A DNA stretch of 20,000 bases from Psammoneis japonica (Eukaryota). Shown here one piece after another: positions 1,212-20,000 of this stretch. The position numbers and the translations under genes were made by a program. The stretch spans positions 183,249 through 203,248 of the forward strand of contig QPGO01000152.1 of NCBI GenBank assembly GCA_008632985.1, read 5' to 3'. The notes beneath the pieces were generated by a model. It saw only the letters and a program-made list of their open reading frames with translations, did not search any database and was not told the origin of the DNA. Position 1 is the stretch's first letter, and the number at the start of each line of letters is the position of its first letter.

Positions 1212-4200
1212 ATGAGCGACATTGAAGTTGAAAAAGCCGTTTCGACCGAGGAGGGTGCCATGAATGGCTCCACCTCCTTGTTGGTGGAGGTCACGGATCT
1301 CGACGCCTTTCAAGGAGACACGCTAGAAGCAAAGATTGACAGTTTCATCGATGCTCATGGGATTGCCATGATTGCCAAGACGCACTGTCCCTTTTGTCTC
1401 GATGCCAAGGAGTTTCTGGCGGAGACTATGGGAGCCCGTGTGCACGTGATTTCCATCGATACGCATCCTGAAGGCGGCGAGATCTTTAAGATTGTCAAGG
1501 ACAAGACCAAGCACGCGACTGTGCCCGTCATTTTTATTAAGGGAAGGTTTGTTGGAGGCTGTGACGATATCAAGGCTCTTGACGCCAAGGACGAACTCGA
1601 AGACATGATTGGTGACCTTGTCGAGCATCCCAAGACGATTGGTACGGACACTCTCGAAACGGCCAAGCTTACTCCCAAAAGCCGCGGAACGGCTCGGAAT
1701 CCTCCTTTCTGGTTTCCGAACGTTGTCAACAATGTAAGTACGAGCTTGGAGTGCTCTATACTGTGCTGGCAAAGTCGTATCGCTGGTACTCACGCACGTT
1801 ATGTTTCTCCTCTTTTCAGTACGTTGTGAGGCTCACTGGTCTTCAAGTGTTTGGACTTTGCATTGTGAGCATGGTTTTCTACAAGGAGACCTGGGCACAA
1901 TACCTTGCTCCGGGCTTGCTTGTGGACTTTTGTCTACGCATGGTGGCTGGATCGTCGGTGTCGCCCTTGGGTATGATTGCAACCGTCGCTTCGGCACCCT
2001 TTCGCCCACAGTTTCGGCCAGGACCTCCCAAGCAATTTGCGGCGCTCTGCGGAGTATCCTTTACGCTCTTGGCTACCATTTTTTACTTTGTCGACTTTGA
2101 CGGTCGCGACATTGTCGCGGTTGTCATTCTTGGAATGTTGGCGGTTGCAGCTGGACTCGAGGCTTTCTTGTAAGTATTGAATGATTGATTGTGGTGTGGC
2201 TTTGTTTGGACTGCAGCTCACATAATTTTCGCTGCCGACTTTTTGGTTCTACCTACAGTGACTTTTGTTTGGGCTGTCTCTTCTTTAGCTATGGCATTCG
2301 GTTTGGGATATTTCCTGATAGTGTCTATCGTATTTACACGTCCTCCAAGCAAGAAGTCGAGGACAGCTGGGACTATATGTTTCAAGACTCTGGCGCTCCA
2401 AAGCCTGAAAAGGTGGATACCGATCCCACGAGCCCCGTTGCTCTCAAGTACAAGAAGAAGCTCGACGAATGGACCAAGGATGACTTTCACTTGGTTCGAA
2501 ACATGTCGGTTGGGTATTTTGCAATGCCGCTTGCCATTTTTGGACTCGCCACTGCCTTCAAGATTGGTTCAGAGTGGAATGAAGGCCTTCGTCAGCTTCA
2601 AAAGGAGAGCACTTCAACCTTTCAGGAGGTACCCGTTGCATGGTTTCAGACCTTCTCGGTAATTGGAGCTGTCGTGTTCATTATCTTCTTGGTCTTGTAC
2701 TGCATCCGCTTGTTTCAGTATCCCCACAAGTGTCAAACGGAATGGGAGTAAGTCAGGACAATCAAGCTGATCTCGTGTTCATTTGTGCCTGATACTCACA
2801 CTGTCCACACTGTTCTTGTCGTTGTTAGTTGTCCTCTCCGTTCTCCGAGCTTTGGAGCAATCACTATTTGTTTCATGTTAGGCGCTTTCTTGGTGTACGA
2901 CCAAATCAACGAAGATAACAACAACACGTCGACGTTTGCTCGTATTATTTTCTGGATGGGGGCTGTCGCGCAAGTCCTTTTGACCATTTCCAAGATGGGA
3001 GAGTGGATTGGGACTCGCCTTGAGCTTGAACACGTTCACCCTCATTGGATGATTCTTCCTGTTGGACTGTCCGTTGCAGCCCTGTGTGCTCCCATCATTC
3101 CCATGTTTGAGCAAGAGGAAGGCAACGAGGATAACCATGCGGAAGCCAACATTCTTGTTGGACGTTTCTTCTTTTCGTTTGCCTTTCTCATGTGGATCAC
3201 GCTTTTCGTCATTACGTTCTTCAAGGTGGCTACTACGCACAACTCTGACAACCGTATTCGTCACGGTGTTTTTATTTGGCTGGCGGCACCATGCATCATT
3301 GGTTTGGCGCAGGCCTCCATTTGCCTGTTGGAGGCTGAACAGGGGTTGAGGCCAGCTCAAGAATGCAGCAATGAATTCTCGAACTATTACTTTATTGGAA
3401 TGTTCTTCTTCCTTTCCTTCCTATGGGCGACTTTTCCGTACATTGGATTCTTTGGCAGGGACAAGTTCGGCATGGGATACTGGATTGAGTGCTTTGCATT
3501 TGACACTCTCGCAGCATGTTCTGCATTCTTTTACGCACTCAATGGATTCAACGCAAGCAAGACGCTCATGTACATTGGTCTTGTTGTGGCGTCAATTGCC
3601 AACATGGTGGCTTTGTGCCACACGATTGTCGCGATTATTCGTGGTCGTGGTGTATTTACTCCGGAAGTCAAGTGGGGACCTTTGTCCTTCATGAAGCTTA
3701 CCCACGAAGCGTTCCGTGGCAACATTGACAGACTTCGCACCCTTATTGACGCCGTGGATCTAAACGACAAGTCATCGCAAGGGGAAGCCAACCTTGGGTT
3801 ATTTGCTGCCTACTTCAATCGTTTCTGCATTGTTCACCATGAACACGCGAAACACGAAGATGAAGTGATCTTCAAGACCTTCAACGACTTCTTTAGTGGC
3901 CACACCAAGTTCTATAACGACGACCACGCGGCGGATCATATCAAGATGGAGGGCTGGCGCGAATCTTGCAACATGCTCTTGGATACGAATATGAGCAATG
4001 ACGTTCGTCAAGAGGCACTTGATTCCCTCAAAGCGGAACTCAACCCGTTCTTTGACCACTTTGAAGAACATCTCAGGGGCGAGGAAGCCAACCTCCAACC
4101 AATTGGAAGGAAGTACATTCCGCTTGAGCTCCAGAAGCAGATTTCACGTGAAGTGTTCCTCATTACGAGCGCTGAAAATTGGGAGGTCATTATTCCTTAT

Positions 4201-4475
4201 GTAGTGAACAATGTTCCGCGCCACTTGCAACGAGTGCGCTATCTCAAGGTCCTCCTTTGGGCGATGCCTGAGCGTGCCCAGCAGATTGGTGCAATCGTCT
4301 ATCGTAACTCCGATTCAGTTACCTGGGGTACGTGGCCACCTCTGAAAAGAATTCAATGCTTTCAACTTGAGGATCTTACCAACTGCTTTACTTTTTATCT
4401 CTTGCAGAACGTCTCAAGGTTGATGTTCCTGAAATGATTCCTCGTGCGGCTCCAGGTTGGAGGAGGTACTATTAG
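1212..4475 (+). CDS. Multidomain membrane protein, 975 aa: glutaredoxin + DUF4395-like TM domain + SLAC1/TehA (TDT family) channel + hemerythrin HHE domain; exons 1212-1733, 1820-2169, 2259-2747, 2829-4327, 4408-4475
   Basis: Four GT-AG introns (1734-1819, 2170-2258, 2748-2828, 4328-4407; donors GTAAGT x3 and GTACGT) join the four ORF-track pieces in phase. Total is 2928 nt, stop TAG at 4473-4475. Grx motifs: KTHCPFC, TVPVIFIKGRFVGGCDD. DUF4395-like motifs: FPNVVNNYVVR, GPPKQFAA, GLEAFFDFCLGC. TDT motifs: GYFAMPLAIFGLATAF, WLAAP, FGMGYWIECFAF. Hemerythrin motifs: THEAFR, HHEHAKHEDEVIF, DHAADH, HFEEHLRGEEANLQP. Confidence 0.9.
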
Positions 4476-4637: not shown

Positions 4638-7600
4638 TTAGTTTTTGTACCAATCCTCTCTAATGAACCTTGCGATTTCAATGATTTGGCCCAAGTTTGC
4701 TTCCCCCTCGTGTGTCTTCATGTGTGCAACATGTGACCTTTCATCACGGTATCGGACACGGCAAAATGGGCACAGGCGGTTCCTGATCAGCGTTTGACCT
4801 CCTTCAAGCATTTTCCTTCCTCGAGATACAACACGCAGCACCTCGGCAGTCGTTGATCTGGTCTGCTTTGCTTCTTTCGTCTTCTTCAGGACAGCTTCAA
4901 CCTTCCCAATCTGATACAATCGCAAGAAGTTCTTGTTGAAGATATTCTTCTCTGGCTCCCAAGTACATTCTTCCAGAGAAAATCCTTTCCATTTAATGAG
5001 ATACTCGTTGATCACTGTTCCTCTACCATTCTTCCTCTTTCGTTCGTCGAGGATACGTTCGGCTTGATATACATCGTCTCCAAACATCTCGAGCATCTGA
5101 TCCGCCTCAGAGGATGGATCTGAAGCAATCTCCGAAGACGATTCACGTTTATTAGATGATTCCTTTCGACTGCGACCTGGTACTTTTGGTGACCGAGATG
5201 ATAGACGTCTCTTCTTACTGTCGCCTCGTTGCTCAGCTCCCTTGCCCTTCGCATTTTCAGCCTCTTGCCGTCTTCTTTTTGCCCTTTCCGCGGGTGCTAT
5301 CATCAAGTGGTCGAATTCGTCAACGTCTAAGCAAACTTCCTTCTTCTCTTGCTTTGTGTTTTTTGAATCCACACCCCTCTTGTTTCGCACAGACTCGTGC
5401 TTGGAAGCGCGCTCTGATTGAGTGCTGGCAACGTCTGATTTTTCAGAATGGCTTTCACCTGTTTCTGCCTTCGAGACACTGTCCTCTTGTTCACCGGTTT
5501 CGTTCCGATTTGCATTTGCAGACATGATGGCAACTGCCTGTGATCCATCGGAAGGACTCGGTGTTCTTGAAGAAGCCCTCTTTTCTGCAGTATTCTCCTT
5601 TTGATCGCCGCCCACATCGTTTATACAATCTGCTGTATCAGCACCTAGATCTAGCTCAACTGTTGACTGTACACGAGATTTCGCGGCCTTCTTGCAATCG
5701 CTTGTCATGTCGCCGTCATCTGCTGCAGTGTTAGAAGCCGCCGACTTGCCATCATCTACCGTGGGATCATCAGAAGCTTTCTTGGGCATTGGCGAATGCA
5801 CAGCTTCACCGGCCTTTGTCGTCGCATCAACGGCAATAGTGCAATCATGAGAATTCTTCTCTGAAGTTGGTGATGGCACAGTTTCAAAGACTACAACCGG
5901 CGCATCTGTAACAGCGGCTTTATGATCGGAATCTTTCTCTGAAGTCGGCAACCGCCCAGTTTCAGAGAACTTAGGGCTAGCTGCTTTCGCATCAGCGGCG
6001 GCACTAACGCCCCCATCCTCGTCTAACCTTGGTGGCAGTACAGCTTGACAGGTATCGACAATGGCGTTTTCGTCGGGCTCTACAACCTCACAGCTCAACA
6101 CTGTGGAGTCCTTATTCTCGCCAGTATCGCATTCCAGCAAGTCGTTGCTCCCGGTGGTTATCTCGCAATCGCTCTTCTTAGACCCATATCCCGACTCCAG
6201 TCTGCATGGAGAGCCTTCGTCACTCCTTTTCTCCTCACACGCCAGTGTTGGTTCTTTTTCTTTGTAAGCAATGGTTCCAATTTCTTTTGGTTGCGCTATC
6301 ATTTCCTGGCATCTCAATCGTTCTCTCTCTTCCTTAAGCCGGAAATCAACGTCTCTCAGAAACTTTGAATGCACGGTGGGATGTGGACATTCACCAACAA
6401 TACGGAGTGAATCAGCGCGAAGCCAAATGGAAGCAGCGACAATAGAAGACCGTATAGGATGGCGTAACACTGTTCGAGCATCAGTGACCGTACGAGACGA
6501 CTCAACAATATTTTCCATTTGTAGCAACGGCCGGACCAATGCCTTCTGGCTGGCGGGGCAAACGGCGAGGATTACTCCGTATTGCAACTTGATCGGCTGG
6601 GAGTTCGACACGTAATCTTCCGCAACCGACTCAAAATCCGGTTTCCATGAGACGATAGAACCCAAGATCGTGTCACGCGGACTTGGTTCTTTCAGCGGCG
6701 GCTTCTCAGCCTCCCTGGCTAATACATGAGAAATCTTCCACGATGAGGCATCTTCACCGATCGCACCCATCTCAACAGCTGAAGAAATCGTTGACGAATC
6801 ACTTCTCGCCCGAATGATGAAGCCATCTTGCACTGTTTCTATGGCATCATGCCACTCATCGTTGCCTTCAAAGTCGTGTGTCCCGCATATTTCGCGAGCT
6901 TTGATGAGAGTCATGAGTAAGGATTTACATCCAAGCTCGCTGTTGGCCTCCTCTACTGCCTTGCGAAATAGACTCAAATCCCCTGTATAGTTTGCTGATG
7001 CTCCAACCAACTGGTTATAGGCAATTTCCTCGTAGTGTTGGAAGAACGGGAGAACAGCCGTAGCCCTGACACGATTAGACCCACTAATGCCATAGAATTT
7101 CACAACGTACGGGGTAGTTTCTGTTTGTCTTTTATTAGCCGCCCTCGGTTCCGAAACGATCATCACAATAGCAGGCCACCAATTATCTCTTCCTGGTAGC
7201 CCCTCTGCTGCGTTGCTTCTCCTTGCCCAACAAAGCTCTCCGACACTGAAATGGACTTCGGGAACTATTTTGTCGTTTACCTTGAGACTGGCTTGAACTG
7301 GCATAGCCCTGCGCTTTGTTTGGACTGGCAATTTATCGCGCGAAACCAACCCAAGAGCAGCCTCCCAGCTGTTATATCGGAAGTCTAATCCCATGTTCTC
7401 CGTCGATTGCTTTTCATTTCCGCTTTCGCCGCCGGTGGATATAGCCTTACTCTGCTCAATAACGAAACCATCGCATCCTTCTATTTCAACAACAGAGCTA
7501 ACGTCGGAATTGTAATTCAGACATTTGTGGCAGAACCAGTCACCCTCTGGAATTCTTCCTAGTGGTGGCTCGAGACACTTCGCATGAAAGAGGCAATCGC

Positions 7601-8903
7601 ACCCGTCACAAAGAAGAAGGTGTTCAGAGTCGAATCCACTCCGACATACTTCACATGCATTCGATCTAGCTTGATATTCGTATTCGCCATCTGAGCTTGC
7701 GTTTTCAAAGCTATCGTCCTTGAATACACCGCGAGCGCGACTTCTTCCGTTGCCCCTTCTGCGACCCGCATGTTTACTACGTTCTATGAAGCCCCGCGCA
7801 GTCCTCTGGATATTTATTTTCTTCGCCATCGCAACCATCGACGAAACAGGAGCTGAAAAATCAGGACATTCGACCTCATAGTGTCCCCATTTTTTGCAAA
7901 CTGAACACATCCTGAAAAAAGGCGACGCTACTGGCTGGTGAAATCTAGTCGAATTCATTGCTTTATCACGTTCTGCCCGCTGCCTCTCCCCTTTTGTGAG
8001 CCCCTCGTCTCTTTCTGCCCAGTTTGAGACACAAACAAGAGAGTATTCATTATAGACTAACGATAAAGGTGAAAATGACGAGGTCGATGACAATGACAGG
8101 GCCCGTTCGTTTTCTTTCTGGCGACCCAGAGCATTCTTTGAGCTGATATGAGATAATGCTTTCATTCCGTCCTCGGATTTCCGAAATCTCAAATAAACTT
8201 CACGTTCCAGCTCATCAAGCGTTCTTGAAGGGTTCTCTACCTTCTTTTTTTCTTGCTTCGTTCCGCATTCTTCCGACTGCTGAGTAGCACCACCAACTTT
8301 ATCGTTACTTTTCTTCCTTGTTCTATTGAACTTATTAAGCGCATACGGCACCAGGGAGAGCTCAGAAACTGTGGATCGACATTTTGAGTTTAGAGCTTCC
8401 TCTGTACATGCCGTTGTTGACAACTTGTCGTTATGACGATGTCGTCTAAGCATGCCCCGTTTCCGCCGTTTTTCAGAGTTGATCTCGAACAACTGCCTCG
8501 AGAAGCTTGTCCCTGTCTCTCTCGCCAAAGCAGAAAGACGTTCGGGGTCGCTTCGGAGGAATAAGCCAAGCAGCAACTCTTTGTGCCAGGCTCTTGTGTG
8601 ATGTTTCATCTCCTCCTCCTGCGTTCTTTGTCGCGGCTCTGCTCGCAGCAAAATACGATCATCATCGTGCCTTGTCTCGATGGATGGATTTACCTGCTGA
8701 TGCTGCTGGACCTCTTCTTTAGCGGCATCTACGAGAAGCCCATTCGTGTTCCTGGTGCCAGTGGCATCCGATTTGTTTTTATTCGCCATCGGCGTCATGC
8801 TGTTCAATTGGGCGGCGACCTCCTCAACTTCTTTTCGTTTTTCATCTTCACCAGCATCCAGCACCTCTCTTGGCGCTGCTGTTGCGTTGGTGCTCTCGTT
8901 CAT
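4638..8903 (-). CDS. Chromatin-reader protein, 1421 aa, single exon: CCHC zinc knuckle, PHD finger, PWWP domain, acidic disordered linker, chromodomain, C-terminal C2H2 finger
   Basis: Knuckle CSVCKKWGHYEVEC (~7865-7907). PHD CEVCRSGFDSEHLLLCDGCDCLFHAKCLEPPLGRIPEGDWFCHKC (~7521-7656). PWWP FSVGELCWARR...NWWPAIV...YVVKFYG (~7040-7255). Chromo YQAERILDER...EYLIKWKGFSLEECTWEPEKNI (~4940-5075). C2H2 CPFCRVRYRDERSHVAHMKTH. An in-frame TGA lies 5 codons upstream of the ATG. Confidence 0.9.
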   Translation of the reverse strand: MNESTNATAAPREVLDAGEDEKRKEVEEVAAQLNSMTPMANKNKSDATGTRNTNGLLVDAAKEEVQQHQQVNPSIETRHDDDRILLRAEPRQRTQEEEMKHHTRAWHKELLLGLFLRSDPERLSALARETGTSFSRQLFEINSEKRRKRGMLRRHRHNDKLSTTACTEEALNSKCRSTVSELSLVPYALNKFNRTRKKSNDKVGGATQQSEECGTKQEKKKVENPSRTLDELEREVYLRFRKSEDGMKALSHISSKNALGRQKENERALSLSSTSSFSPLSLVYNEYSLVCVSNWAERDEGLTKGERQRAERDKAMNSTRFHQPVASPFFRMCSVCKKWGHYEVECPDFSAPVSSMVAMAKKINIQRTARGFIERSKHAGRRRGNGRSRARGVFKDDSFENASSDGEYEYQARSNACEVCRSGFDSEHLLLCDGCDCLFHAKCLEPPLGRIPEGDWFCHKCLNYNSDVSSVVEIEGCDGFVIEQSKAISTGGESGNEKQSTENMGLDFRYNSWEAALGLVSRDKLPVQTKRRAMPVQASLKVNDKIVPEVHFSVGELCWARRSNAAEGLPGRDNWWPAIVMIVSEPRAANKRQTETTPYVVKFYGISGSNRVRATAVLPFFQHYEEIAYNQLVGASANYTGDLSLFRKAVEEANSELGCKSLLMTLIKAREICGTHDFEGNDEWHDAIETVQDGFIIRARSDSSTISSAVEMGAIGEDASSWKISHVLAREAEKPPLKEPSPRDTILGSIVSWKPDFESVAEDYVSNSQPIKLQYGVILAVCPASQKALVRPLLQMENIVESSRTVTDARTVLRHPIRSSIVAASIWLRADSLRIVGECPHPTVHSKFLRDVDFRLKEERERLRCQEMIAQPKEIGTIAYKEKEPTLACEEKRSDEGSPCRLESGYGSKKSDCEITTGSNDLLECDTGENKDSTVLSCEVVEPDENAIVDTCQAVLPPRLDEDGGVSAAADAKAASPKFSETGRLPTSEKDSDHKAAVTDAPVVVFETVPSPTSEKNSHDCTIAVDATTKAGEAVHSPMPKKASDDPTVDDGKSAASNTAADDGDMTSDCKKAAKSRVQSTVELDLGADTADCINDVGGDQKENTAEKRASSRTPSPSDGSQAVAIMSANANRNETGEQEDSVSKAETGESHSEKSDVASTQSERASKHESVRNKRGVDSKNTKQEKKEVCLDVDEFDHLMIAPAERAKRRRQEAENAKGKGAEQRGDSKKRRLSSRSPKVPGRSRKESSNKRESSSEIASDPSSEADQMLEMFGDDVYQAERILDERKRKNGRGTVINEYLIKWKGFSLEECTWEPEKNIFNKNFLRLYQIGKVEAVLKKTKEAKQTRSTTAEVLRVVSRGRKMLEGGQTLIRNRLCPFCRVRYRDERSHVAHMKTHEGEANLGQIIEIARFIREDWYKN

Positions 8904-9255
8904 CTTCGGTGTCGATCAGAATAGTAAGTTCCTCTCTAATATACAACAGCGCACTAGAGGCTATGCTCACACGACAGAACTCTGTGTGATCTTCACCCTC
9001 GCGCCAGAGCTAGAGTGGCGCGTACTCTAGAGTATTAGTGATAGAGTGTTACAGAAATCGAGATTTGCCGATAACAGCAGAGAGACAACGTTACACCGAC
9101 CAAATGAGTCGGGATGACTGCTTCCTGTAGTGCCTGGTGTCGTCACGGCAAAAACTCAAAAGGAAGACCTCCAAGAAAACTAAAGCGATTCGACGCAGCA
9201 AGGACTTTTAGGGTGGGGTAGGGCCTAGGTTGTCTTTCTCGGAGGGCGGGTGTAT

Positions 9256-9501
9256 CTAAAAACAAGAAGAAGAATAGGCGCGTAAAGAGAGAGGAAGAAG
9301 CACCGAAGGGATTAGAATGTGAATGTCAACAAAAAGTGCACAGCAGAGGAACGACGATCCATGGCATTGTCGAACCGGAATGAATCGCACGAAGAGAGCG
9401 GGGAATAGAAACACTCCCTTCGTCAGAAAAGACAATCCGCGCAACCGCGGGCCGGCTCGGCTCGGCAAAAAAATGACAGACGACACACGAGACAGACTCA
9501 C
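9256..9501 (-). other. Putative 246-nt spliceosomal intron in a non-coding context (5'UTR of the chromatin gene or a separate non-coding transcript)
   Basis: Minus strand shows a GTGAGT donor at 9501, a CTAAT branch-like motif near 9311-9315, a long pyrimidine tract and a TTTTAG acceptor ending at 9256. The upstream exon has only 4-7 codon ATG ORFs. Confidence 0.5.
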
Positions 9502-11607: not shown

Positions 11608-13686
11608 TTAGAGGAAGGTCTCGTTGGCCGCTTCCACGACAGGAGGGGCGACGCGCGACTTGCCTGAAGCACTGCCACTTTCGTCCTTAGTAGTATCGTT
11701 CGACGCCTGGTGGACAAACACGTCTTGTTCCGCGCCTTGTTGGTTCTTCGCGTGATGCGAAGCCAGCTTGTAGATCATCTCGACGAGGCCGGAACGATAT
11801 TTCTCTGACCCGCCCGTCACATCATCAACTGCACGGAACAGAGAGATGGGTAACGTCAGCAAGATCAACGCAATAACAGATACGTCGTATGCTACGGCGG
11901 GCGAATAAAAAAACACGAGACTTACGGCTAAGCCTACTTGGACCACCTCCAACTTTGCCTCCATTGGCCACTTCGTAGAAATAAGATGGAAAAACTCAGG
12001 CTTGAATTCCACATTCTCGCTAATGAATTCTTCGATCCTACGATAGAATGATTTGAAGGAAGGAGGGAAACGCGTTTTGGCCTTAGCCCACTCTTCTGAG
12101 CTGACAAACTTGGGATGTTCTCGCTTTCTTTTCTTCCCGCTCTCTGATCTAGGATTCGAAACCGATTCCTTGTTGTCCTGCTGCTTGGGTTTCTCAGCCA
12201 CAGCTTGTTCCTTCGCAGCCTTCGCGGTTTCGATTGCTGCTTCTTGTCTCGCCTTGGCCATACTGCGAAGCTCAACAGCCACGGGATGATCCACAACCCT
12301 GTAGAACAGCATGTAGGCTTCGGCGCTCTTGACTTCTTGGTAGGAGGCTCGGGTAACACGTGCATCGTCCATCTTCCACCAATCGTTCTTCTTGCCGACA
12401 TTTCTCACATAGGAGATGTAATGGCCAGAATGGCTGTTCTTGCCAGCATGTACCACTACCGCAAAGAGACGGCACAAGATGGGCTTGCTCTTCTTCTGAA
12501 GCTCTTCCGTTAGGTAAGGACGAATGTCAAGGATCTCATCAAACTTGATATGGCCCTCAATCTTGGCAGATCCGGAGCCTCCATAATATTCGGCAGTGTT
12601 GCTACCGAGAAGTTGGCTAAGCTCGGATCGTCCAGTGCGACGTGTTGGGGGCTGGGAACCCCCACCTGCACCGCCCTTGTCTGACGAACCATATCGAAAA
12701 CGCTTGAGGTGAAGCGTCAAGATGGGAGGGATCGAGGCGAGTCGACTCTGCTTGGTAGCGCGACCCACCTTACCACACTTATCGCACTTGTAACCCGAAT
12801 CAAGAGACTCGGCTTTAGCAAAGCGTTGAAAGGCTTGCGACACATCCGCCAACGCCGAGGAGGGAGGAGGAGTCGAGGAGCGGGATGTCCTTACGTCACT
12901 TGATAGCGGAGTCACTTCAAGTCCAATGTCTTCAATCGGATCGATCTTGGAGCTGGATGTCTTGCAGGAACCACAGGTGACAGTTGATTTCACTGTACCT
13001 CTGAACAGCTTGAAAGGATATTCGTTTTCTACTTCGTTTTCCTTCTGATCTTCGTCTTGAGTGGAGTTCTGCGAGCTGTCCTTGTCGTTACTTCTCGCAC
13101 CAGCACAGCTCTTCTGCATAGCGTCAATCAACAGGCGAAGGAACTCGTGGGAATCTTCTTGGACCCCAAGTTTGAACCATGGCGCTACTTGAGATACGAA
13201 ACCATGAACAAAAGCGTGCGGAGCAATAGCATCTGCCTCTGGTTTCGATGCTGCTGTTGAGGCCGTGTTGACTGCAGGGTCGTGTACGCGTGCAAGATGC
13301 TGTTCCACTTCACACAGGGCACAAAACTGCAGATCTAAACCATCTTCACCATCACTACTGGCAGGACTCTTCCTTCCCGACCTTCGTGATTTACGAGTAC
13401 CCCCACTGGCTGCTTTCTTTTCTGGTGCTGTAACTGTGTTTCCTTCAGGACTCGGCTGCGGAGAAGCTCTGCTCTTCTTCTCCGCATTCTCCTTTGCAAT
13501 CGGACACGTGATATGATGAGGTTCATAATCCATCGCCATACACAATTCTGGAGCATGAGCCAGAGCTTGCAACACAGCATTCATGTAGCAAGTGCTTCCC
13601 AAATTGGTCATTCCCAATGCAACCTCTCGCTTTACCTCCGTTGGAGGCACGAATGCTGCAGACAACGACTCCTGCACTTGCACCAT
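11608..13686 (-). CDS. Ubiquitin carboxyl-terminal hydrolase (USP/peptidase C19, USP36/42-like); probable intron 11829-11925 and probable 1-nt indel just upstream of it
   Basis: Cys box GMTNLGSTCYMNAVLQAL, QEDSHEFL, LTLHLKRF, His box HAGKNSHSGHYISYV, WWKMDDARV, AYMLFY. The first ATG is at 13686; the ORF-track start at 13845 is a TTG. Confidence 0.92.
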   Translation of the reverse strand: MVQVQESLSAAFVPPTEVKREVALGMTNLGSTCYMNAVLQALAHAPELCMAMDYEPHHITCPIAKENAEKKSRASPQPSPEGNTVTAPEKKAASGGTRKSRRSGRKSPASSDGEDGLDLQFCALCEVEQHLARVHDPAVNTASTAASKPEADAIAPHAFVHGFVSQVAPWFKLGVQEDSHEFLRLLIDAMQKSCAGARSNDKDSSQNSTQDEDQKENEVENEYPFKLFRGTVKSTVTCGSCKTSSSKIDPIEDIGLEVTPLSSDVRTSRSSTPPPSSALADVSQAFQRFAKAESLDSGYKCDKCGKVGRATKQSRLASIPPILTLHLKRFRYGSSDKGGAGGGSQPPTRRTGRSELSQLLGSNTAEYYGGSGSAKIEGHIKFDEILDIRPYLTEELQKKSKPILCRLFAVVVHAGKNSHSGHYISYVRNVGKKNDWWKMDDARVTRASYQEVKSAEAYMLFYRVVDHPVAVELRSMAKARQEAAIETAKAAKEQAVAEKPKQQDNKESVSNPRSESGKKRKREHPKFVSSEEWAKAKTRFPPSFKSFYRRIEEFISENVEFKPEFFHLISTKWPMEAKLEVVQVGLAVSLVFFYSPAVAYDVSVIALILLTLPISLFRAVDDVTGGSEKYRSGLVEMIYKLASHHAKNQQGAEQDVFVHQASNDTTKDESGSASGKSRVAPPVVEAANETFL

Positions 13687-14380
13687 GATTTCCGACCTAG
13701 TCCTTCTCAGGACTTGCCTAGGAGGTGTAAGAAGCCTCGACAAGGGCCCCACGAACGAGAATCTCGACTGAGAACGACGGTTGCTGTCTAATGTGCATGC
13801 TTCTGAGCACACACTCACTCCTTGTTCCTGTTTCGATCGTTGCAAGCCGCTGTGGACGTGTGGAAGTGCGCAACGAACGCTTCGGTCGATCGTCGATTCT
13901 TGGCCTCTTTGGGCCTGTCCTACGTGGTTTGACTACCGAAGGCTACGTGGTGCCGTCGGATGGAGAAATTGGGCGCGGCCGGCAGTCCGATAAATAATGA
14001 CAGAAGGAAGACTTAAAGGCTCTGTTGGTATTACCCATACAGATACGTACAAAGTTAAACATTTTAATCCTCCTGTCTTAGGATAAATTCTTTCTCTTAG
14101 CCTTAAGTGACATAACGTCATATTCAACCGTCAACTGAAAATTCGCCGGCAGGCAAAAAAGTGAAAGTGGAGGACGACGGACTGGCAAGCAAGGTTCCGT
14201 CGAATTCTTGCGTTGATCCCTAAACGGTACTACTAGGGCCCTACTACTGCAATGTAAAGTCTATCTCTCTCTAGCTAGAGCAAGAATATGTATCACTAGA
14301 GACCTACACGCTAGACTTATCCTATAGGCCACTCCTCTCCCTCCGCCAGAGCTAGCCAGCGTCCTTCGTTGTGTAACAAG

Positions 14381-15567
14381 TCAGCTACTACAGTGGGCGG
14401 GGTCGGCGCTAGCAGCGTTCTCCACATTTTCAACCTTCGCGCCAAATTCTTCAACGTCCTTAAAGAATTTACTCGTCTCAACAATCTGTCCTTGCATTGA
14501 GAGGCCTACTTTGTGTATGGAACCGTCCAGCAATTGAACAATACACGCGGCCGCAGGAATGGCCGTCAACATGTAGGCATCTTCGTGAGACACAGTCATG
14601 CTATGAAGAACAGGTCTCCCACCCTTATTCCCGCGAGCATCCAGCTTCAGCATTGTTCCATAAGGAGGCGCTGAGAAGGTTGTCACTCCCCAATGAAACA
14701 TTTTTGCTATTCGACGTCTCCCTGCATTTGGAAACAATGAAATCCAAGCCCAAATAAGTGGTGACAGGACCCAGTCCACGAACCAGTTGAAACCTCCACA
14801 AAGAATCCAGTTTCTTTGAGTGAAGGATAAAGGGTCGGTAGCAATCGTAACTCTTCTAGAAACATTGGTATGCATTGCCGACGTCCAAACCTTTCGCCGA
14901 AATCGATTGTTTTTGGATTCATCATTCCCCACGCGCCAGGGTCTTTCCATTCACCGTCCTTGTAATATTCGCATTGAAAATCTTTGAACTCGTCAATAAA
15001 TTCCAACAAAGTTGAATCAGTTAGGTCTAGACTCGCCCAGTCGATGGCTATTACTGACCCAATGTTGGCAACTTCCAAGGAATCCAGCTTTGTTGCGACT
15101 TGACGAACCATTGCGGAAGGCAGACCTGGATGAAAGCCGCCCTCCGTCACAAAGCAAAGTCCAGCCTCCTTAATTTCATCTTCCATGGATTGGAGGATAC
15201 GCAGTTTGGATGTTGAATACTGCAAATCAAAATAATCGACCTTGTGCTCTATTGCTGTAGATGCAACGAGCGAAACATACTGCGAAGTACTTGATGCCAC
15301 CACAACTAGGTCGCACCCTCGCACAGCCTCGGAAAGAGATGATTTTTCAGATGCATCAGCATAAATGCCCTGTACGCGACACATACCACCAGTCGAAGAA
15401 TTCAGCGAATCTGCCGCCTCTTTTGCCTTTTCAATGTGGCGCCCTGCAAGAACGAGAAGAACGTTGGGTAGAGCTTGTAGAAGCAGTCTTGCGAGTGGCA
15501 GTCCCGCGCTTCCATAGCCCCCAAGGATTAAGATTTTGGTCTTTTTGTCTGAGAGTGATGTGGCCAT
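14381..15567 (-). CDS. Saccharopine dehydrogenase-like NAD(P)-binding oxidoreductase, about 395 aa if repaired; split by a 1-nt frameshift at ~14797 (assembly error or pseudogene)
   Basis: Rossmann motif ILILGGYGSAG, LVLAGR, VDYFDL, EGGFHPGLPS. ORF 14707-15567 runs to LKETGFFV and ORF 14381-14950 continues GGFNWFVDWVLSP...DAYMLTAIPAAAC. One missing base in TTT GT(N) GGA GGT restores a single frame, and there is no room for an intron. Confidence 0.8.
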
Positions 15568-15826
15568 TGGTTTGCTTTACATAGCGATACAATCTTGGTA
15601 CCGTCAACGTCCCTGTTGTTTAAGTTGCTCAAGATAGTGTTGCGTTGCGGCGTAGTTGTCGTTGTTCGTTGTCAAAAACAAAAGAAATGAGAACTCAAAA
15701 TATGACGAAAGAGTTTACCGCCTAAATGGCATAAATTGGAATTCATCTGCGGTCGCGTCTCGCGTCGACGCCACACCATGACAGGAGAAATTGAAGCAAC
15801 TTCAGCACCGCCATTGACAATAAACA

Positions 15827-16786
15827 ATGTCGGACTCAAAGAAAAAGACGACCTCTAGGAGAGACTCATCGTCTTCTACTAGCAACACCATGTCAAAGAA
15901 TGAACTCTACACCCCTCTCATGGCCTATGATCAGGATGAGAAAACAACCGAACATCCTTCGCTGTACATGTCAAACAGAAAAAGTGGAGTGCCCAATTCA
16001 TTACGAGAATCGTCCCTGGTAGAGTTCTGGCAACGTGTGAGCATAGATTACCACCGAAATGCCACATACCATGATGCAACAAACAACAGTTCTCGACCGC
16101 TTTCGAAAAAGGACGTAGAGGACAGAATACGACAACGTGCGCTGACGCTTACTGGCGGAGGCTTCAGCACATCACTCGGCCAAGGAGGCAACAAGAAAAA
16201 GAAACGGGCCATAAAGTCTCAGAGACCTGCTGGAACAAAATCAAAGCGTCAAATGAAGAAAATTATAGTGGCATCACGAATCGAAAGTAAGTCCATGGAG
16301 AGTAATCATAGCACAAAAAGTGGAGCTTTCAAATCGCCTAGCTCCGAAAAAGGGAAGGTTTGGTCTACCGAAGTTCTTCAGAAGCTTAACAGAATGTGGA
16401 TAAAATATGCACAGTCGCTACTTCCTCCCCGCCCGGAAAGAGAACCATTCTCAATACAAGACTACAGCAAATCTCTTTCCAATGGCTCTTATTCACGCTC
16501 TATGGCAGCTGCGGAACTGGTGGGAGCCAAGGTCGAGGTGACAGGGTGTGCTGCGCATCCTTCTCTCGTGGGAAAGTCTGGCATTGTGGTGGAAACTCCG
16601 AAAACTTGTTGGAAAGTTGCCATTTTCAGAACTCAAGAGAAAATGGCAGCTTCTCAGTCATCCGTAACGAGCTGGAAGGTATGTATTGTTCCAAAGCTCA
16701 ACTCGAAACTTGCGATACGAGTCCCCCTTCCCGCTTGCACAGGTCATTCAGTTGTTGTGACCATTTACGGGTGCTCGACAGCATAG
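15827..16786 (+). CDS. POP4: RNase P/MRP protein subunit p29 (POP4/RPP29), 319 aa
   Basis: C-terminal pattern LQKLNRMWIKYAQSLL...AAELVGAKVEVTGCAAHPSLVGKSGIVVET...IVPKLNS matches the Rpp29 motifs (LxxLWxxY, ADLHGA, PSxVGxxGI, IPK). The N-terminus is basic. The gene is divergent from the oxidoreductase gene across 259 bp. Confidence 0.8.
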   Translation: MSDSKKKTTSRRDSSSSTSNTMSKNELYTPLMAYDQDEKTTEHPSLYMSNRKSGVPNSLRESSLVEFWQRVSIDYHRNATYHDATNNSSRPLSKKDVEDRIRQRALTLTGGGFSTSLGQGGNKKKKRAIKSQRPAGTKSKRQMKKIIVASRIESKSMESNHSTKSGAFKSPSSEKGKVWSTEVLQKLNRMWIKYAQSLLPPRPEREPFSIQDYSKSLSNGSYSRSMAAAELVGAKVEVTGCAAHPSLVGKSGIVVETPKTCWKVAIFRTQEKMAASQSSVTSWKVCIVPKLNSKLAIRVPLPACTGHSVVVTIYGCSTA

Positions 16787-18946: not shown

Positions 18947-19393
18947 TGCAGCATGCATGCAGACAAAAGGTCATTTTTGTCACGCCCTTTGTGACATTTA
19001 AAGGCTGCAACACGTCGCCGTGATGCATTGGCTCTCATCAGTGGCTGTGTGCTGCACTCCTCCCCATGTGTCACGCGTCCATGCAGCTCTTTGCTGACGT
19101 GCACTGACACTGCACGGTTTTGGCGGAACAGTGTGGGTGCGTGCGAAGGAACACACAGAACTGCACAGAGTTTTGCGCATTCGACAGTGATCAACGTTGC
19201 TGCAGACAACTCCCACTCAGGGTTTCGAACCCCTGGCCTCCTGCCCAATGGTTGCGATGAACCACTCCGCTGTGAATTCACAATGCAGCATGCATGCAGA
19301 CAAAAGGTCATTTTTGTCACACCCTTTGTGACATTTAAAGGCTGCAACACGTCGCCGTGATGCGTTGACTCTCATCAGCAGCTGTGTGTTGCA
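18947..19393 (-). mobile_element. Non-autonomous miniature LTR retroelement (TRIM-like), 447 bp; LTRs 18947-19056 and 19284-19393
   Basis: Two 110-bp direct repeats with TG...CA ends and 6 differences. A 4-bp target duplication CACC sits at 18943-18946 and 19394-19397, and the empty site GTGTCTCTGCCCACCTTCTTC is preserved at 19441-19461. A polypurine tract GGGGAGGAG (minus, 19065-19057) abuts the LTR and fixes the orientation. The 227-bp interior has no recognisable gag/pol sequence. Confidence 0.85.
19218..19272 (-). promoter_or_regulatory. tRNA-like Pol III internal promoter (A box + B box) inside the mini-LTR element
   Basis: Minus strand: CAGCGGAGTGG (A-box consensus TRGCNNARYGG, T>C at the first base) with a D-stem-like GCG...CGC, then GGTTCGAAACC (B box) within CAGGGG-TTCGAAA-CCCTG. 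There is no intact acceptor or anticodon stem. Confidence 0.55.
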
Positions 19394-19498
19394 CACCTTC
19401 TTCTGGATTGACGAGTCTCTGCACTTTGGTTGCCACAACTGTGTCTCTGCCCACCTTCTTCTGGATTGATGAGTCTCTGCACTTTGGTTGCCACAACT
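19394..19498. repeat. 58-bp-period tandem duplication in the host sequence; the first copy is interrupted by the mini-LTR element
   Basis: CACCTTCTTCTGGATTGA(C/T)GAGTCTCTGCACTTTGGTTGCCACAACT starts at 19394 and at 19452, with a single CG/TG difference. The 5' part of copy 1 lies at 18929-18946. Confidence 0.85.
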
Positions 19499-20000
19499 TT
19501 GTGTTGTTTTCTGAGGGGGTTGTTGTTTCATCAGTGCTCCTCCCAGTGCTGGTGGTGTGCACATTGCTGCCCGGCCATTTGCCGCCGCAATCTGGGGATT
19601 TCCCTGCATTTGCAAATGTCATGGCCTGAGCGTCAGACAGCCATCAATTTGCTTGTCATCACATGTTCACTGACACAATTTGAGCTCACTAACCTGAGTT
19701 TCAAAAACACAGCATTTGGCTGGGACTGAATGTTCAAAATGCCAATTTTTCAAATTCCGTTTCCCACAATTCCAACATTTGTGTCTGTCCAGCTGTGGGG
19801 CGTGCCGCTCTCAATCAGCTCTCACACCTGCACAACAATCTGATGTTAAAATCAACCAATTCACTTGCTTCCTGCAGTTCTCCCTTTGTTTTCATCAATC
19901 TTGGAATCCCCACCCTGCAATTTGATCCTTGCGCATGGTTTGTTCCTGCTGTTGCCAGTGCAAGCCTTGCTGAGTCAGTTGCGTCAATGTTGCTGCTGGT

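Follow-up and report, generated by a model that had tools for sequence, protein, structure and literature searches.

In a 20,000-nucleotide stretch of DNA from Psammoneis japonica (GenBank assembly GCA_008632985.1, contig QPGO01000152.1, positions 183,249 to 203,248 of the forward strand; hereafter the window), positions 1212-4475 of the plus strand almost certainly form one gene in the nuclear genome of a diatom-like eukaryote, encoding a 975-residue polytopic membrane protein of four domains that belongs to a conserved eukaryotic family. From the N to the C terminus the domains are a class-I glutaredoxin, a DUF4395 domain, a TDT/SLAC1 domain and an HHE hemerythrin, the last of which is followed by a conserved tail. 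The family to which the window protein belongs, while undescribed, already exists in public databases; it is a variant of the TDT/SLAC1 channels. With a probability of roughly 0.45, it may be an anion channel that is shut at rest and gated from the cytosol by a glutathione-dependent thiol switch together with a di-iron sensor of iron and oxygen, a substrate class and a mode of gating that we infer from domain anatomy and conservation.

Gene structure and integrity of the fusion

The stop-to-stop open reading frames (ORFs) listed for the plus strand between 1146 and 4437 are spread over three frames, and the gene is composed of the following elements.

1212..4475, plus strand: gene of five exons and four GT..AG introns, with ATG at 1212 and TAG at 4473-4475
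1212..1733, plus strand: exon 1; ATG start, an acidic N-terminal stretch, the glutaredoxin domain and PFWFPNVVNN, the first motif of DUF4395
1734..1819, plus strand: intron 1, 86 nucleotides, GTAAGT..CAG; cuts DUF4395 near the start of the domain
1820..2169, plus strand: exon 2; DUF4395 helices 1-4
2170..2258, plus strand: intron 2, 89 nucleotides, GTAAGT..CAG, phase 2
2259..2747, plus strand: exon 3; FCLGC at the end of DUF4395, then a conserved linker (about 80 amino acids) and TDT helices 1-2
2748..2828, plus strand: intron 3, 81 nucleotides, GTAAGT..TAG, phase 2; splits the TDT domain (between positions 65 and 71 of the profile)
2829..4327, plus strand: exon 4; a single open frame of TDT helices 3-10, hemerythrin and the greater part of the tail
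4328..4407, plus strand: intron 4, 80 nucleotides, GTACGT..CAG, phase 1
4408..4475, plus strand: exon 5, 68 nucleotides; the last 22 codons and TAG, carrying the end of the conserved C-terminal tail

Joined computationally, the exons yield a coding sequence of 2928 nucleotides that translates into 975 amino acids with a single terminal stop and no in-frame stops; retention of intron 4 would stop the frame at 4437, with loss of the conserved tail. The initial annotation, made from the DNA alone, had given exactly these gene limits, this in-phase 975-residue product and four splice junctions, although the four pieces from which it assembled the protein are in fact five coding pieces, including the 68-nucleotide last exon. 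All four junctions are gapless in the alignment with 49 full-length relatives, which were retrieved by a search limited to proteins of 875-2495 amino acids and are 27-63% identical to the window protein over exon 4. Junction 4 serves as an example (...AVMW/ERLRVEVPEIIPRG..W.RYY, the slash marking the splice site) and is conserved across the relatives. The four junctions of the Psammoneis gene are in this way supported by splice signals, reading frame and homology.

The introns interrupt the domains rather than separate them. The boundary between glutaredoxin and DUF4395 lies within exon 1, where the glutaredoxin domain and the PFWFPNVVNN motif occur together, that between DUF4395 and TDT lies within exon 3, and that between TDT and hemerythrin within exon 4; since all three domain boundaries are exon-internal, the fusion is independent of the splice model. 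Furthermore, several complete transcripts of relatives (transcriptome ORFs marked ‘type:complete’) encode the entire fusion with no break between the modules, which bears out the earlier claim of a single protein. The proposition that two or more adjoining genes have been mis-joined into an artefactual gene model is contradicted by each of these observations, that is, by the exon-internal boundaries, the spliced frame free of in-frame stops, the gapless junctions and the relatives' transcripts, and can be given almost no weight.

Domain assignment

The domains and the residues discussed below are located as follows.

1368..1553, plus strand: glutaredoxin domain, residues 53-114 (Pfam E 8.1e-12)
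1386-1397, 1518-1526 and 1554-1568, plus strand: glutaredoxin motifs CPFC, TVP and GGCDD, respectively, read from the sequence
1704..2313, plus strand: DUF4395 domain, about residues 165-309, a predicted four-helix membrane bundle; spans introns 1 and 2
2024-2053, plus strand: PPKQFAALCG, with C251 on the predicted cytosolic face
2263-2277, plus strand: FCLGC, on the predicted cytosolic face
2500..3612, plus strand: TDT/SLAC1 ten-helix domain (Pfam SLAC1, profile and fold matches); spans intron 3
3493-3495, plus strand: conserved pore phenylalanine F676, within YWIECFAF (3478-3501)
3682..4101, plus strand: hemerythrin HHE domain, residues 739-878, about 15 residues past the last TDT helix
4102..4475, plus strand: C-terminal helical tail with conserved PERAQQIG ... 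PEMIPR ... GWRRYY; spans intron 4

Pfam profiles were run on the separate exon translations and the bit scores compared with the family cut-offs. Glutaredoxin (PF00462) is assigned to exon 1 (E 8.1e-12, 45.6 bits, cut-off 22.9), DUF4395 (PF14340) to exon 2 (E 4.2e-16, 59.9 bits, cut-off 24.5) and hemerythrin (PF01814) to exon 4 (E 1.4e-7, 32.5 bits, cut-off 25.3). The SLAC1 profile (PF03595, cut-off 27.9) is matched in two pieces, positions 1-65 in exon 3 (E 5.2e-5, 23.0 bits) and positions 71-329 in exon 4 (E 4.3e-21, 75.9 bits), which abut at intron 3 with consecutive profile coordinates. A profile search of this kind had been named as a check on the SLAC1, hemerythrin and DUF4395 domains, and it assigns all three as well as glutaredoxin. 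The motifs singled out at that stage are also found, with CPFC at residues 59-62, FCLGC at residues 293-297 and an H / HxxxE / H / HxxxE set of ligands in the hemerythrin. The acidic N-terminus contains no signal-like hydrophobic stretch.

The TDT domain and its pore phenylalanine

Structure tests were made on models of two relatives, P0003 and P0074, rather than on the window's own spliced chain. P0003 (994 amino acids, 62% identical over exon 4) was predicted with AlphaFold2 from a 48-sequence alignment with a predicted local distance difference test score (pLDDT) of 90.2 and a predicted TM-score (pTM) of 0.88, and these whole-chain scores suggest a defined mutual arrangement of the four domains in the model. 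Its TDT part matches SLAH1, SLAH3, SLAC1 (BdSLAC1) and TehA in Foldseek with E from 7.4e-7 and TM-scores to the target of 0.83-0.87. A search of the PDB with the single sequence of exon 4 returned only noise (best E 0.39), and profiles were required. With the family profile, the TDT part is matched to SLAH3 (3.4e-30), SLAH1 (9.6e-30), TehA (2.1e-27) and SLAC1 (2.3e-22). These scores (107.6 to 81.7 bits) are so close that the TDT domain is not assigned to a subfamily.

Compared with plant SLAC1, SLAH1 and SLAH3 (PDB 7wnq, 9m7s and 9m7r), the family shows the same ten-helix TDT fold over the whole domain (TM-scores up to 0.87) and keeps the phenylalanine of their W-x-x-x-F-P motif in transmembrane helix 9 (TM9), although identity in the structural alignments is only 14-18%. 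The termini of plant S-type channels are disordered and targeted by kinases. In contrast, those of the family are folded domains, with glutaredoxin and DUF4395 in front and hemerythrin behind. Regulation through cytosolic extensions would be a working principle in common. TehA (the Haemophilus influenzae homologue, PDB 3m71) likewise has the same fold (TM-score 0.84-0.85, 20% identity, profile E 1.9e-25) and the same position of the pore phenylalanine; unlike the family, TehA in the PDB is a bare chain of 314 residues without accessory domains.

Residue conservation was counted over the 49 relatives, some alignments containing 48. F676 is aligned with the phenylalanine of the TM9 W-x-x-x-F motif in SLAH3, SLAH1 and TehA and is kept in all 49; K448, E452 and R598 are the other invariant residues of the TDT domain. 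We take the position of F676 to be that of the pore-occluding F450 of SLAC1 and F262 of TehA, and hence presumably the pore gate.

The glutaredoxin domain

The glutaredoxin part of the family profile is matched in the PDB to the wheat structure 5zvl (E 7.8e-29) and to 3rhb (8.7e-27), and the corresponding part of the P0003 model matches class-I glutaredoxins in Foldseek with TM-scores of 0.84-0.91. With the class-I dithiol glutaredoxins (wheat 5zvl, Arabidopsis GrxC5 3rhb and poplar GrxC1 2e7p) the domain shares the thioredoxin fold, 33-38% identity, the CPFC/CPYC site, the TVP cis-proline and GG(C)DD; the cis-proline and the GG pair are invariant (n=48). The score against the NCBIfam model GRX_euk, 73 bits, is under the equivalog cut-off of 87.25. 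Unlike stand-alone class-I glutaredoxins, the domain is tethered to a membrane protein, and some members of the family are monothiol. While the first cysteine of the active site is kept in 48 of the 49 relatives (CPFC in 34, CPYC in 4, another dithiol form in 3), the second is lost in 7/49 (CPFS, CPAS, CPWT, CVFT, CAFS), a loss that fits a monothiol, glutathione-dependent mechanism.

DUF4395 and its bacterial relatives

The DUF4395 domain of P0074, modeled alone with AlphaFold2, is a four-helix membrane bundle (pLDDT 90.5, pTM 0.81). In Foldseek it has no match to a solved structure at E <= 0.001 (VKOR, at E 1.8, is at rank 31), and the VIA wide search returned generic helical or four-helix bundles with a best Z of 7.8 and none at or above 8; the absence of a fold match does not make the DUF4395 fold a new one. 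The ESM Atlas clusters nearest to this part are themselves DUF4395 (scores 0.92-0.93). The loop charges (four K+R and no D+E before helix 1, two K+R and no D+E in the loop between helices 2 and 3, and an acidic loop between helices 3 and 4) fit a topology in which the N-terminus, the 2-3 loop and the CxGC motif are on the cytosolic side. The termini of TDT proteins are cytosolic, as established for SLAC1, and when this is combined with the loop charges the glutaredoxin, C251, CxGC and the hemerythrin are all placed in the cytosol. CxGC or CxAC occurs in 47 of the 49 relatives and C251 in most, and PGPPKQFA is kept. A prediction of the complex between the glutaredoxin and DUF4395 parts of P0003, made without alignment or controls, scored 0.00, a value that counts neither for nor against binding.

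Bacterial DUF4395 proteins (mostly from Actinomycetota, about 160-190 amino acids) are 29-34% identical to the eukaryotic domain (P0282, P0287, P0292) and have in common with it F-x-F-P-N, in which F and P are invariant in the alignment, as well as SPLG, PGPPK(R/Q)FA and F-C-x-G-C. They differ in that the bacterial protein stands alone and has a second, C-terminal CxxC, whereas the fusion lacks this CxxC and has the additional C251. The genomic context of the bacterial domain was taken from 594 confirmed prokaryotic loci, of which 80, mostly of Actinomycetota, were kept, and immediate neighbors, 76 proteins in all, were scanned in the 38 loci for which the flanks were complete and an ORF was called. 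These neighbors are heterogeneous, the most frequent being Rce1-like (5/38), thiamine pyrophosphate (TPP) enzyme (4), TauE (3) and Ppx-GppA (3). In the five Rce1-like cases (L011, L013, L017, L018, L019), all Jatrophihabitans-like, the CAAX protease gene follows directly after DUF4395. A TauE/SafE ‘sulfite exporter’ gene adjoins DUF4395 in 3 of the 80 loci (L028, L029, L071), two of them co-directional and two of them close relatives. From the bacterial context, a link to anion exporters is at best faintly indicated.

The hemerythrin domain and C-terminal tail

The candidate di-iron ligands, assigned from the motif pattern and the alignment with FBXL5, are H746, H793, E797, H820, H868 and E872. 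H746, H868 and E872 are kept in 49/49 relatives, and H793, E797 and H820 in 48/49; in the AlphaFold2 model of P0003, residues 762-894 form four long helices. The hemerythrin had been described as of the sensor type, like that of FBXL5, and the hemerythrin of FBXL5 indeed proves to be the only significant match in the PDB to the profile of the hemerythrin and tail (E 9.3e-5; the next match is at 0.56). The alignment with the N-terminal hemerythrin-like domain of FBXL5 (PDB 3v5x, 3u9j) spans the HxxxE / H / HxxxE region. This domain of FBXL5 is a sensor of iron and oxygen, a regulatory module rather than an oxygen carrier. In FBXL5 the hemerythrin is coupled to an F-box ubiquitin ligase, whereas in the family it directly follows a membrane pore and, unlike that of FBXL5, bears an additional conserved helical tail of about 100 amino acids. 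The tail has no Pfam match, and its best score in the ESM Atlas, 0.78, is below the level of a lead.

A widespread eukaryotic family

The precomputed Pfam annotation identifies all four families in 32 of the 49 relatives, three of them (with the hemerythrin unflagged) in 14 and fewer in the remaining 3. According to the names of the sources, members occur in the diatoms Helicotheca, Ditylum, Seminavis, Stauroneis, Epithemia, Fistulifera and Amphiprora; in a pelagophyte, the brown algae Scytosiphon, Nemacystus and Cladosiphon, the xanthophyte Tribonema and the labyrinthulomycete Mucochytrium; in the haptophyte Chrysotila and the green algae Myrmecia, Pyramimonas and Chlamydomonas sp. UWO 241; and in the ichthyosporeans Pirum and Creolimax and the choanoflagellates Diaphanoeca and Stephanoeca. 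A record of the amoebozoan Mayorella is a member of the family without the glutaredoxin part. In a FastTree phylogeny of the model and 50 relatives the window protein falls inside a diatom clade (25 rows, support 100), and the green-algal, brown-algal and ichthyosporean groups are separate. The choanoflagellate proteins P0029 (Diaphanoeca grandis) and P0033 (Stephanoeca diplocostata) group within an ochrophyte/haptophyte clade (35 rows, support 99) and away from the two ichthyosporeans; over exon 4 their identity to the window protein is 44-49%, compared with 27-31% for the ichthyosporeans. This placement could reflect gene transfer from algae or contamination of the transcriptomes by prey.

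A phmmer search with the DUF4395-region fragment of P0074 against 1.84 billion cluster representatives gave 555 matches at E <= 0.001, 179 of them at E <= 1e-10, and the best 150 are mostly fusions of the four-domain type or fragments thereof. From these 150, 28 were picked for odd length or match position and scanned with Pfam: 11 long proteins contain DUF4395 with TDT and/or glutaredoxin, and most of the short ones DUF4395 only. In two of the 28, P0198 and P0283, glutaredoxin, DUF4395 and TDT were detected whereas hemerythrin was not (E <= 1e-4), their chains stopping 42 and 94 residues past the TDT match, and the occurrence of such proteins suggests that the hemerythrin has an accessory character. 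Two further arrangements were seen: P0248 has two glutaredoxin stretches ahead of DUF4395-TDT, and P0192 (645 amino acids, possibly truncated) has a CRAL/TRIO domain ahead of glutaredoxin and DUF4395.

Searches for DUF4395 in longer proteins and for TDT in proximity to hemerythrin yielded no proteins other than members of this eukaryotic family or fragments of such members. P0151 and P0158, considered as proteins of TDT and hemerythrin only, were rejected as truncated gene calls that begin with the end of DUF4395, and P0148-P0150, considered as a separate architecture, as partial calls that begin inside the TDT domain. No bacterial fusion was seen in these architecture searches, which is weak evidence of absence, and no plant homologue with this architecture is among the relatives from the family and architecture searches.

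The initial annotation also stated that no characterized protein with this architecture was known. This holds in so far as no paper describing the four-domain architecture was found in the full-text literature, subscription journals being outside its coverage, but the protein is not a singular one, as the family is widespread and its members are already in databases, under automatic names such as ‘Glutaredoxin-C4’ and, from the Joint Genome Institute (JGI), ‘tellurite resistance protein TehA-like permease/glutaredoxin’. DUF4395 itself is mentioned in two papers of that literature, in one of which (PMC6886795) it is a bare table entry.

Proposed mechanism

The anatomy of the protein is consistent with a channel whose effector would be the TDT domain, a SLAC1/TehA-type anion pore. 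The conserved TM9 phenylalanine would keep the pore shut at rest, and opening would need a conformational trigger. In plant SLAC1 this trigger is phosphorylation of the cytosolic N-terminus; in the family, two built-in sensors at the cytosolic face may supply it and replace the kinase input. The first sensor would be the DUF4395 bundle, with the CxGC motif and, in most eukaryotic members, C251 at the cytosolic membrane boundary. The tethered glutaredoxin would set or restore the state of these cysteines through glutathione-dependent (de)glutathionylation or by reducing disulfides, a reaction for which the catalytic first cysteine would be required and the second dispensable. The second sensor would be the FBXL5-like di-iron hemerythrin about 15 residues behind the last pore helix, the iron occupancy or oxidation state of which (set by iron, oxygen and possibly NO or H2O2) may alter its fold or its docking under the pore. 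Candidate permeant anions are those of the nitrate/chloride type or oxyanions of sulfur or selenium, and the evidence does not tell these candidates apart. A bolder form of the proposal, which we advance only tentatively, is that the protein would represent the first case of an ion channel under the direct control, without kinases, of a hemerythrin di-iron center and a tethered glutaredoxin, with DUF4395 as a new membrane thiol-switch domain, derived from bacteria and retained in fusion with the channel in several eukaryotic supergroups.

Several observations weigh against the proposed gated channel. The TDT domain scores below the curated cut-offs of NCBIfam (46.6-70.7 bits for the tdt subfamily, with P0003 at 70.7, versus 237.25, and also below the TehA cut-off); by sequence it is a divergent branch, in which channel and carrier are not distinguishable. 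The conserved pore phenylalanine is also present in TehA, the physiological role of which is not signal gating, and the cysteines at the membrane boundary could be metal-binding or catalytic instead of forming a switch. In addition, tblastn detected relatives of the window's glutaredoxin, TDT and hemerythrin within 4 kb of bacterial DUF4395 in 0 of the 80 loci, and the 38 scanned loci revealed no conserved neighbor of the bacterial domain, with the consequence that the partnership of glutaredoxin and DUF4395 is without support independent of the fusion itself.

Alternative explanations

The alternatives assign the same domains a different joint function. In the first, which is in line with the auto-name ‘tellurite resistance protein TehA-like permease/glutaredoxin’ given by JGI, glutaredoxin and DUF4395 would together act as a reductase that is driven by glutathione and positioned at the inner mouth of a transporter, processing an oxyanion of sulfur, selenium or tellurium (sulfite, selenite, tellurite) that is moved through the TDT domain, with the hemerythrin tuning the process to iron and oxygen. 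The chemistry of glutathione and glutaredoxin on selenite and arsenate is established, TDT proteins include TehA (tellurite resistance) and fungal Ssu1 (sulfite efflux), and the TauE/SafE gene next to bacterial DUF4395, in two of three cases co-directional, would be in keeping with such a function. However, the TauE link is rare (3/80), with two of its three loci closely related, a reductase fold or motif of known type was not detected in DUF4395, the strict retention of the pore phenylalanine (49/49) favors a gated channel over a coupled carrier, and the loss of the second glutaredoxin cysteine in seven relatives is contrary to an obligatory dithiol reductase; oxyanion processing is accordingly regarded as unlikely, though not negligible. 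Still less support is available for a module of nitrogen-oxide metabolism, in which a hemerythrin similar to RIC/YtfE or NorA would bind NO or carry out NO/nitrite chemistry, the TDT domain would conduct nitrate or nitrite in the manner of SLAH2/3, and the thiol module would serve under nitrosative stress. PF01814 also includes proteins of the RIC/YtfE type, and the best match of the TDT profile in the PDB is SLAH3 (3.4e-30), a nitrate-preferring channel. Nitrate handling and NO signaling matter in the algae that carry the family, though heterotrophs carry it too, among them non-photosynthetic ichthyosporeans and choanoflagellates and a labyrinthulomycete. Since the hemerythrin has a single significant relative of solved structure, FBXL5 rather than a RIC protein, and the scores of SLAH3, SLAH1, TehA and SLAC1 are too close for a subfamily call, this module is considered improbable.

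Finally, glutaredoxin and DUF4395 might constitute a transmembrane or quinone-linked thiol relay after the manner of VKOR-thioredoxin or DsbB/DsbD, with which the channel would merely be co-localized. In favor of a relay, a conserved CxxC-type motif is present in a four-helix membrane domain to which a domain of thioredoxin fold is attached, and actinobacterial DUF4395 has its second CxxC near the C terminus; the VKOR-thioredoxin fusions, such as plant LTO1 (an analogy only), similarly combine a thioredoxin fold with a small membrane domain that is helical and bears a motif of the CxxC type. No relation in sequence or fold to these fusions was detected (for VKOR, Foldseek E 1.8 at rank 31), all conserved cysteines of the family are predicted to be on the cytosolic face with no obvious path across the membrane, and the fusion to TDT is kept across distant lineages, which favors a joint function, so that a relay of this kind appears very improbable.

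Significance of a possible redox- and iron-linked pore

SLAC1-type channels are known mainly from the guard cells of land plants, where they are opened by kinases. The occurrence of the family in diatoms, brown and green algae, haptophytes and heterotrophic protists suggests that many aquatic eukaryotes link a SLAC1-type pore to sensors of glutathione redox state and of iron and oxygen, which are variables that limit ocean phytoplankton. If the proposed gating is correct, one polypeptide would translate the iron/oxygen status of the cell and its glutathione redox state into a flux of anions with no kinase involved, and would provide a compact, single-gene system for hemerythrin-based sensing with a directly measurable output, namely current. 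DUF4395, with its 594 confirmed bacterial loci, gains its first testable partners in glutaredoxin and an anion pore.

Genomic surroundings

The neighboring genes of the window are ordinary eukaryotic nuclear genes. An uninterrupted ORF of 1425 amino acids on the minus strand (4638-8915) contains a PHD finger (E 1.5e-9), a PWWP domain (7.9e-7) and a Chromo domain (7.2e-16), and its product is probably a chromatin reader, judging by these domains. It is convergent with the channel gene at the latter's 3' end, the two stop codons being about 160 nucleotides apart, and just upstream of the start of the 1425-residue ORF the plus strand is strongly purine-skewed (9001-9500; GC skew 0.16, AT skew 0.34). 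Further along the window are a UCH ubiquitin hydrolase/deubiquitinase (11611-13932, minus strand, E 1.4e-50), a saccharopine-dehydrogenase NADP-binding domain (14710-15576, minus strand, E 3.5e-10) and the RNase P/MRP subunit p29 (15824-16783, plus strand, E 4.2e-7). An open-ended ORF at 3-395 of the minus strand, rich in Q, P, G and Y and with no Pfam match, represents either the low-complexity terminus of a gene that extends beyond the window or a frame that does not code for protein. At 19382-19506 there is a tandem repeat (2.2 copies of 58 nucleotides, 89% matches).

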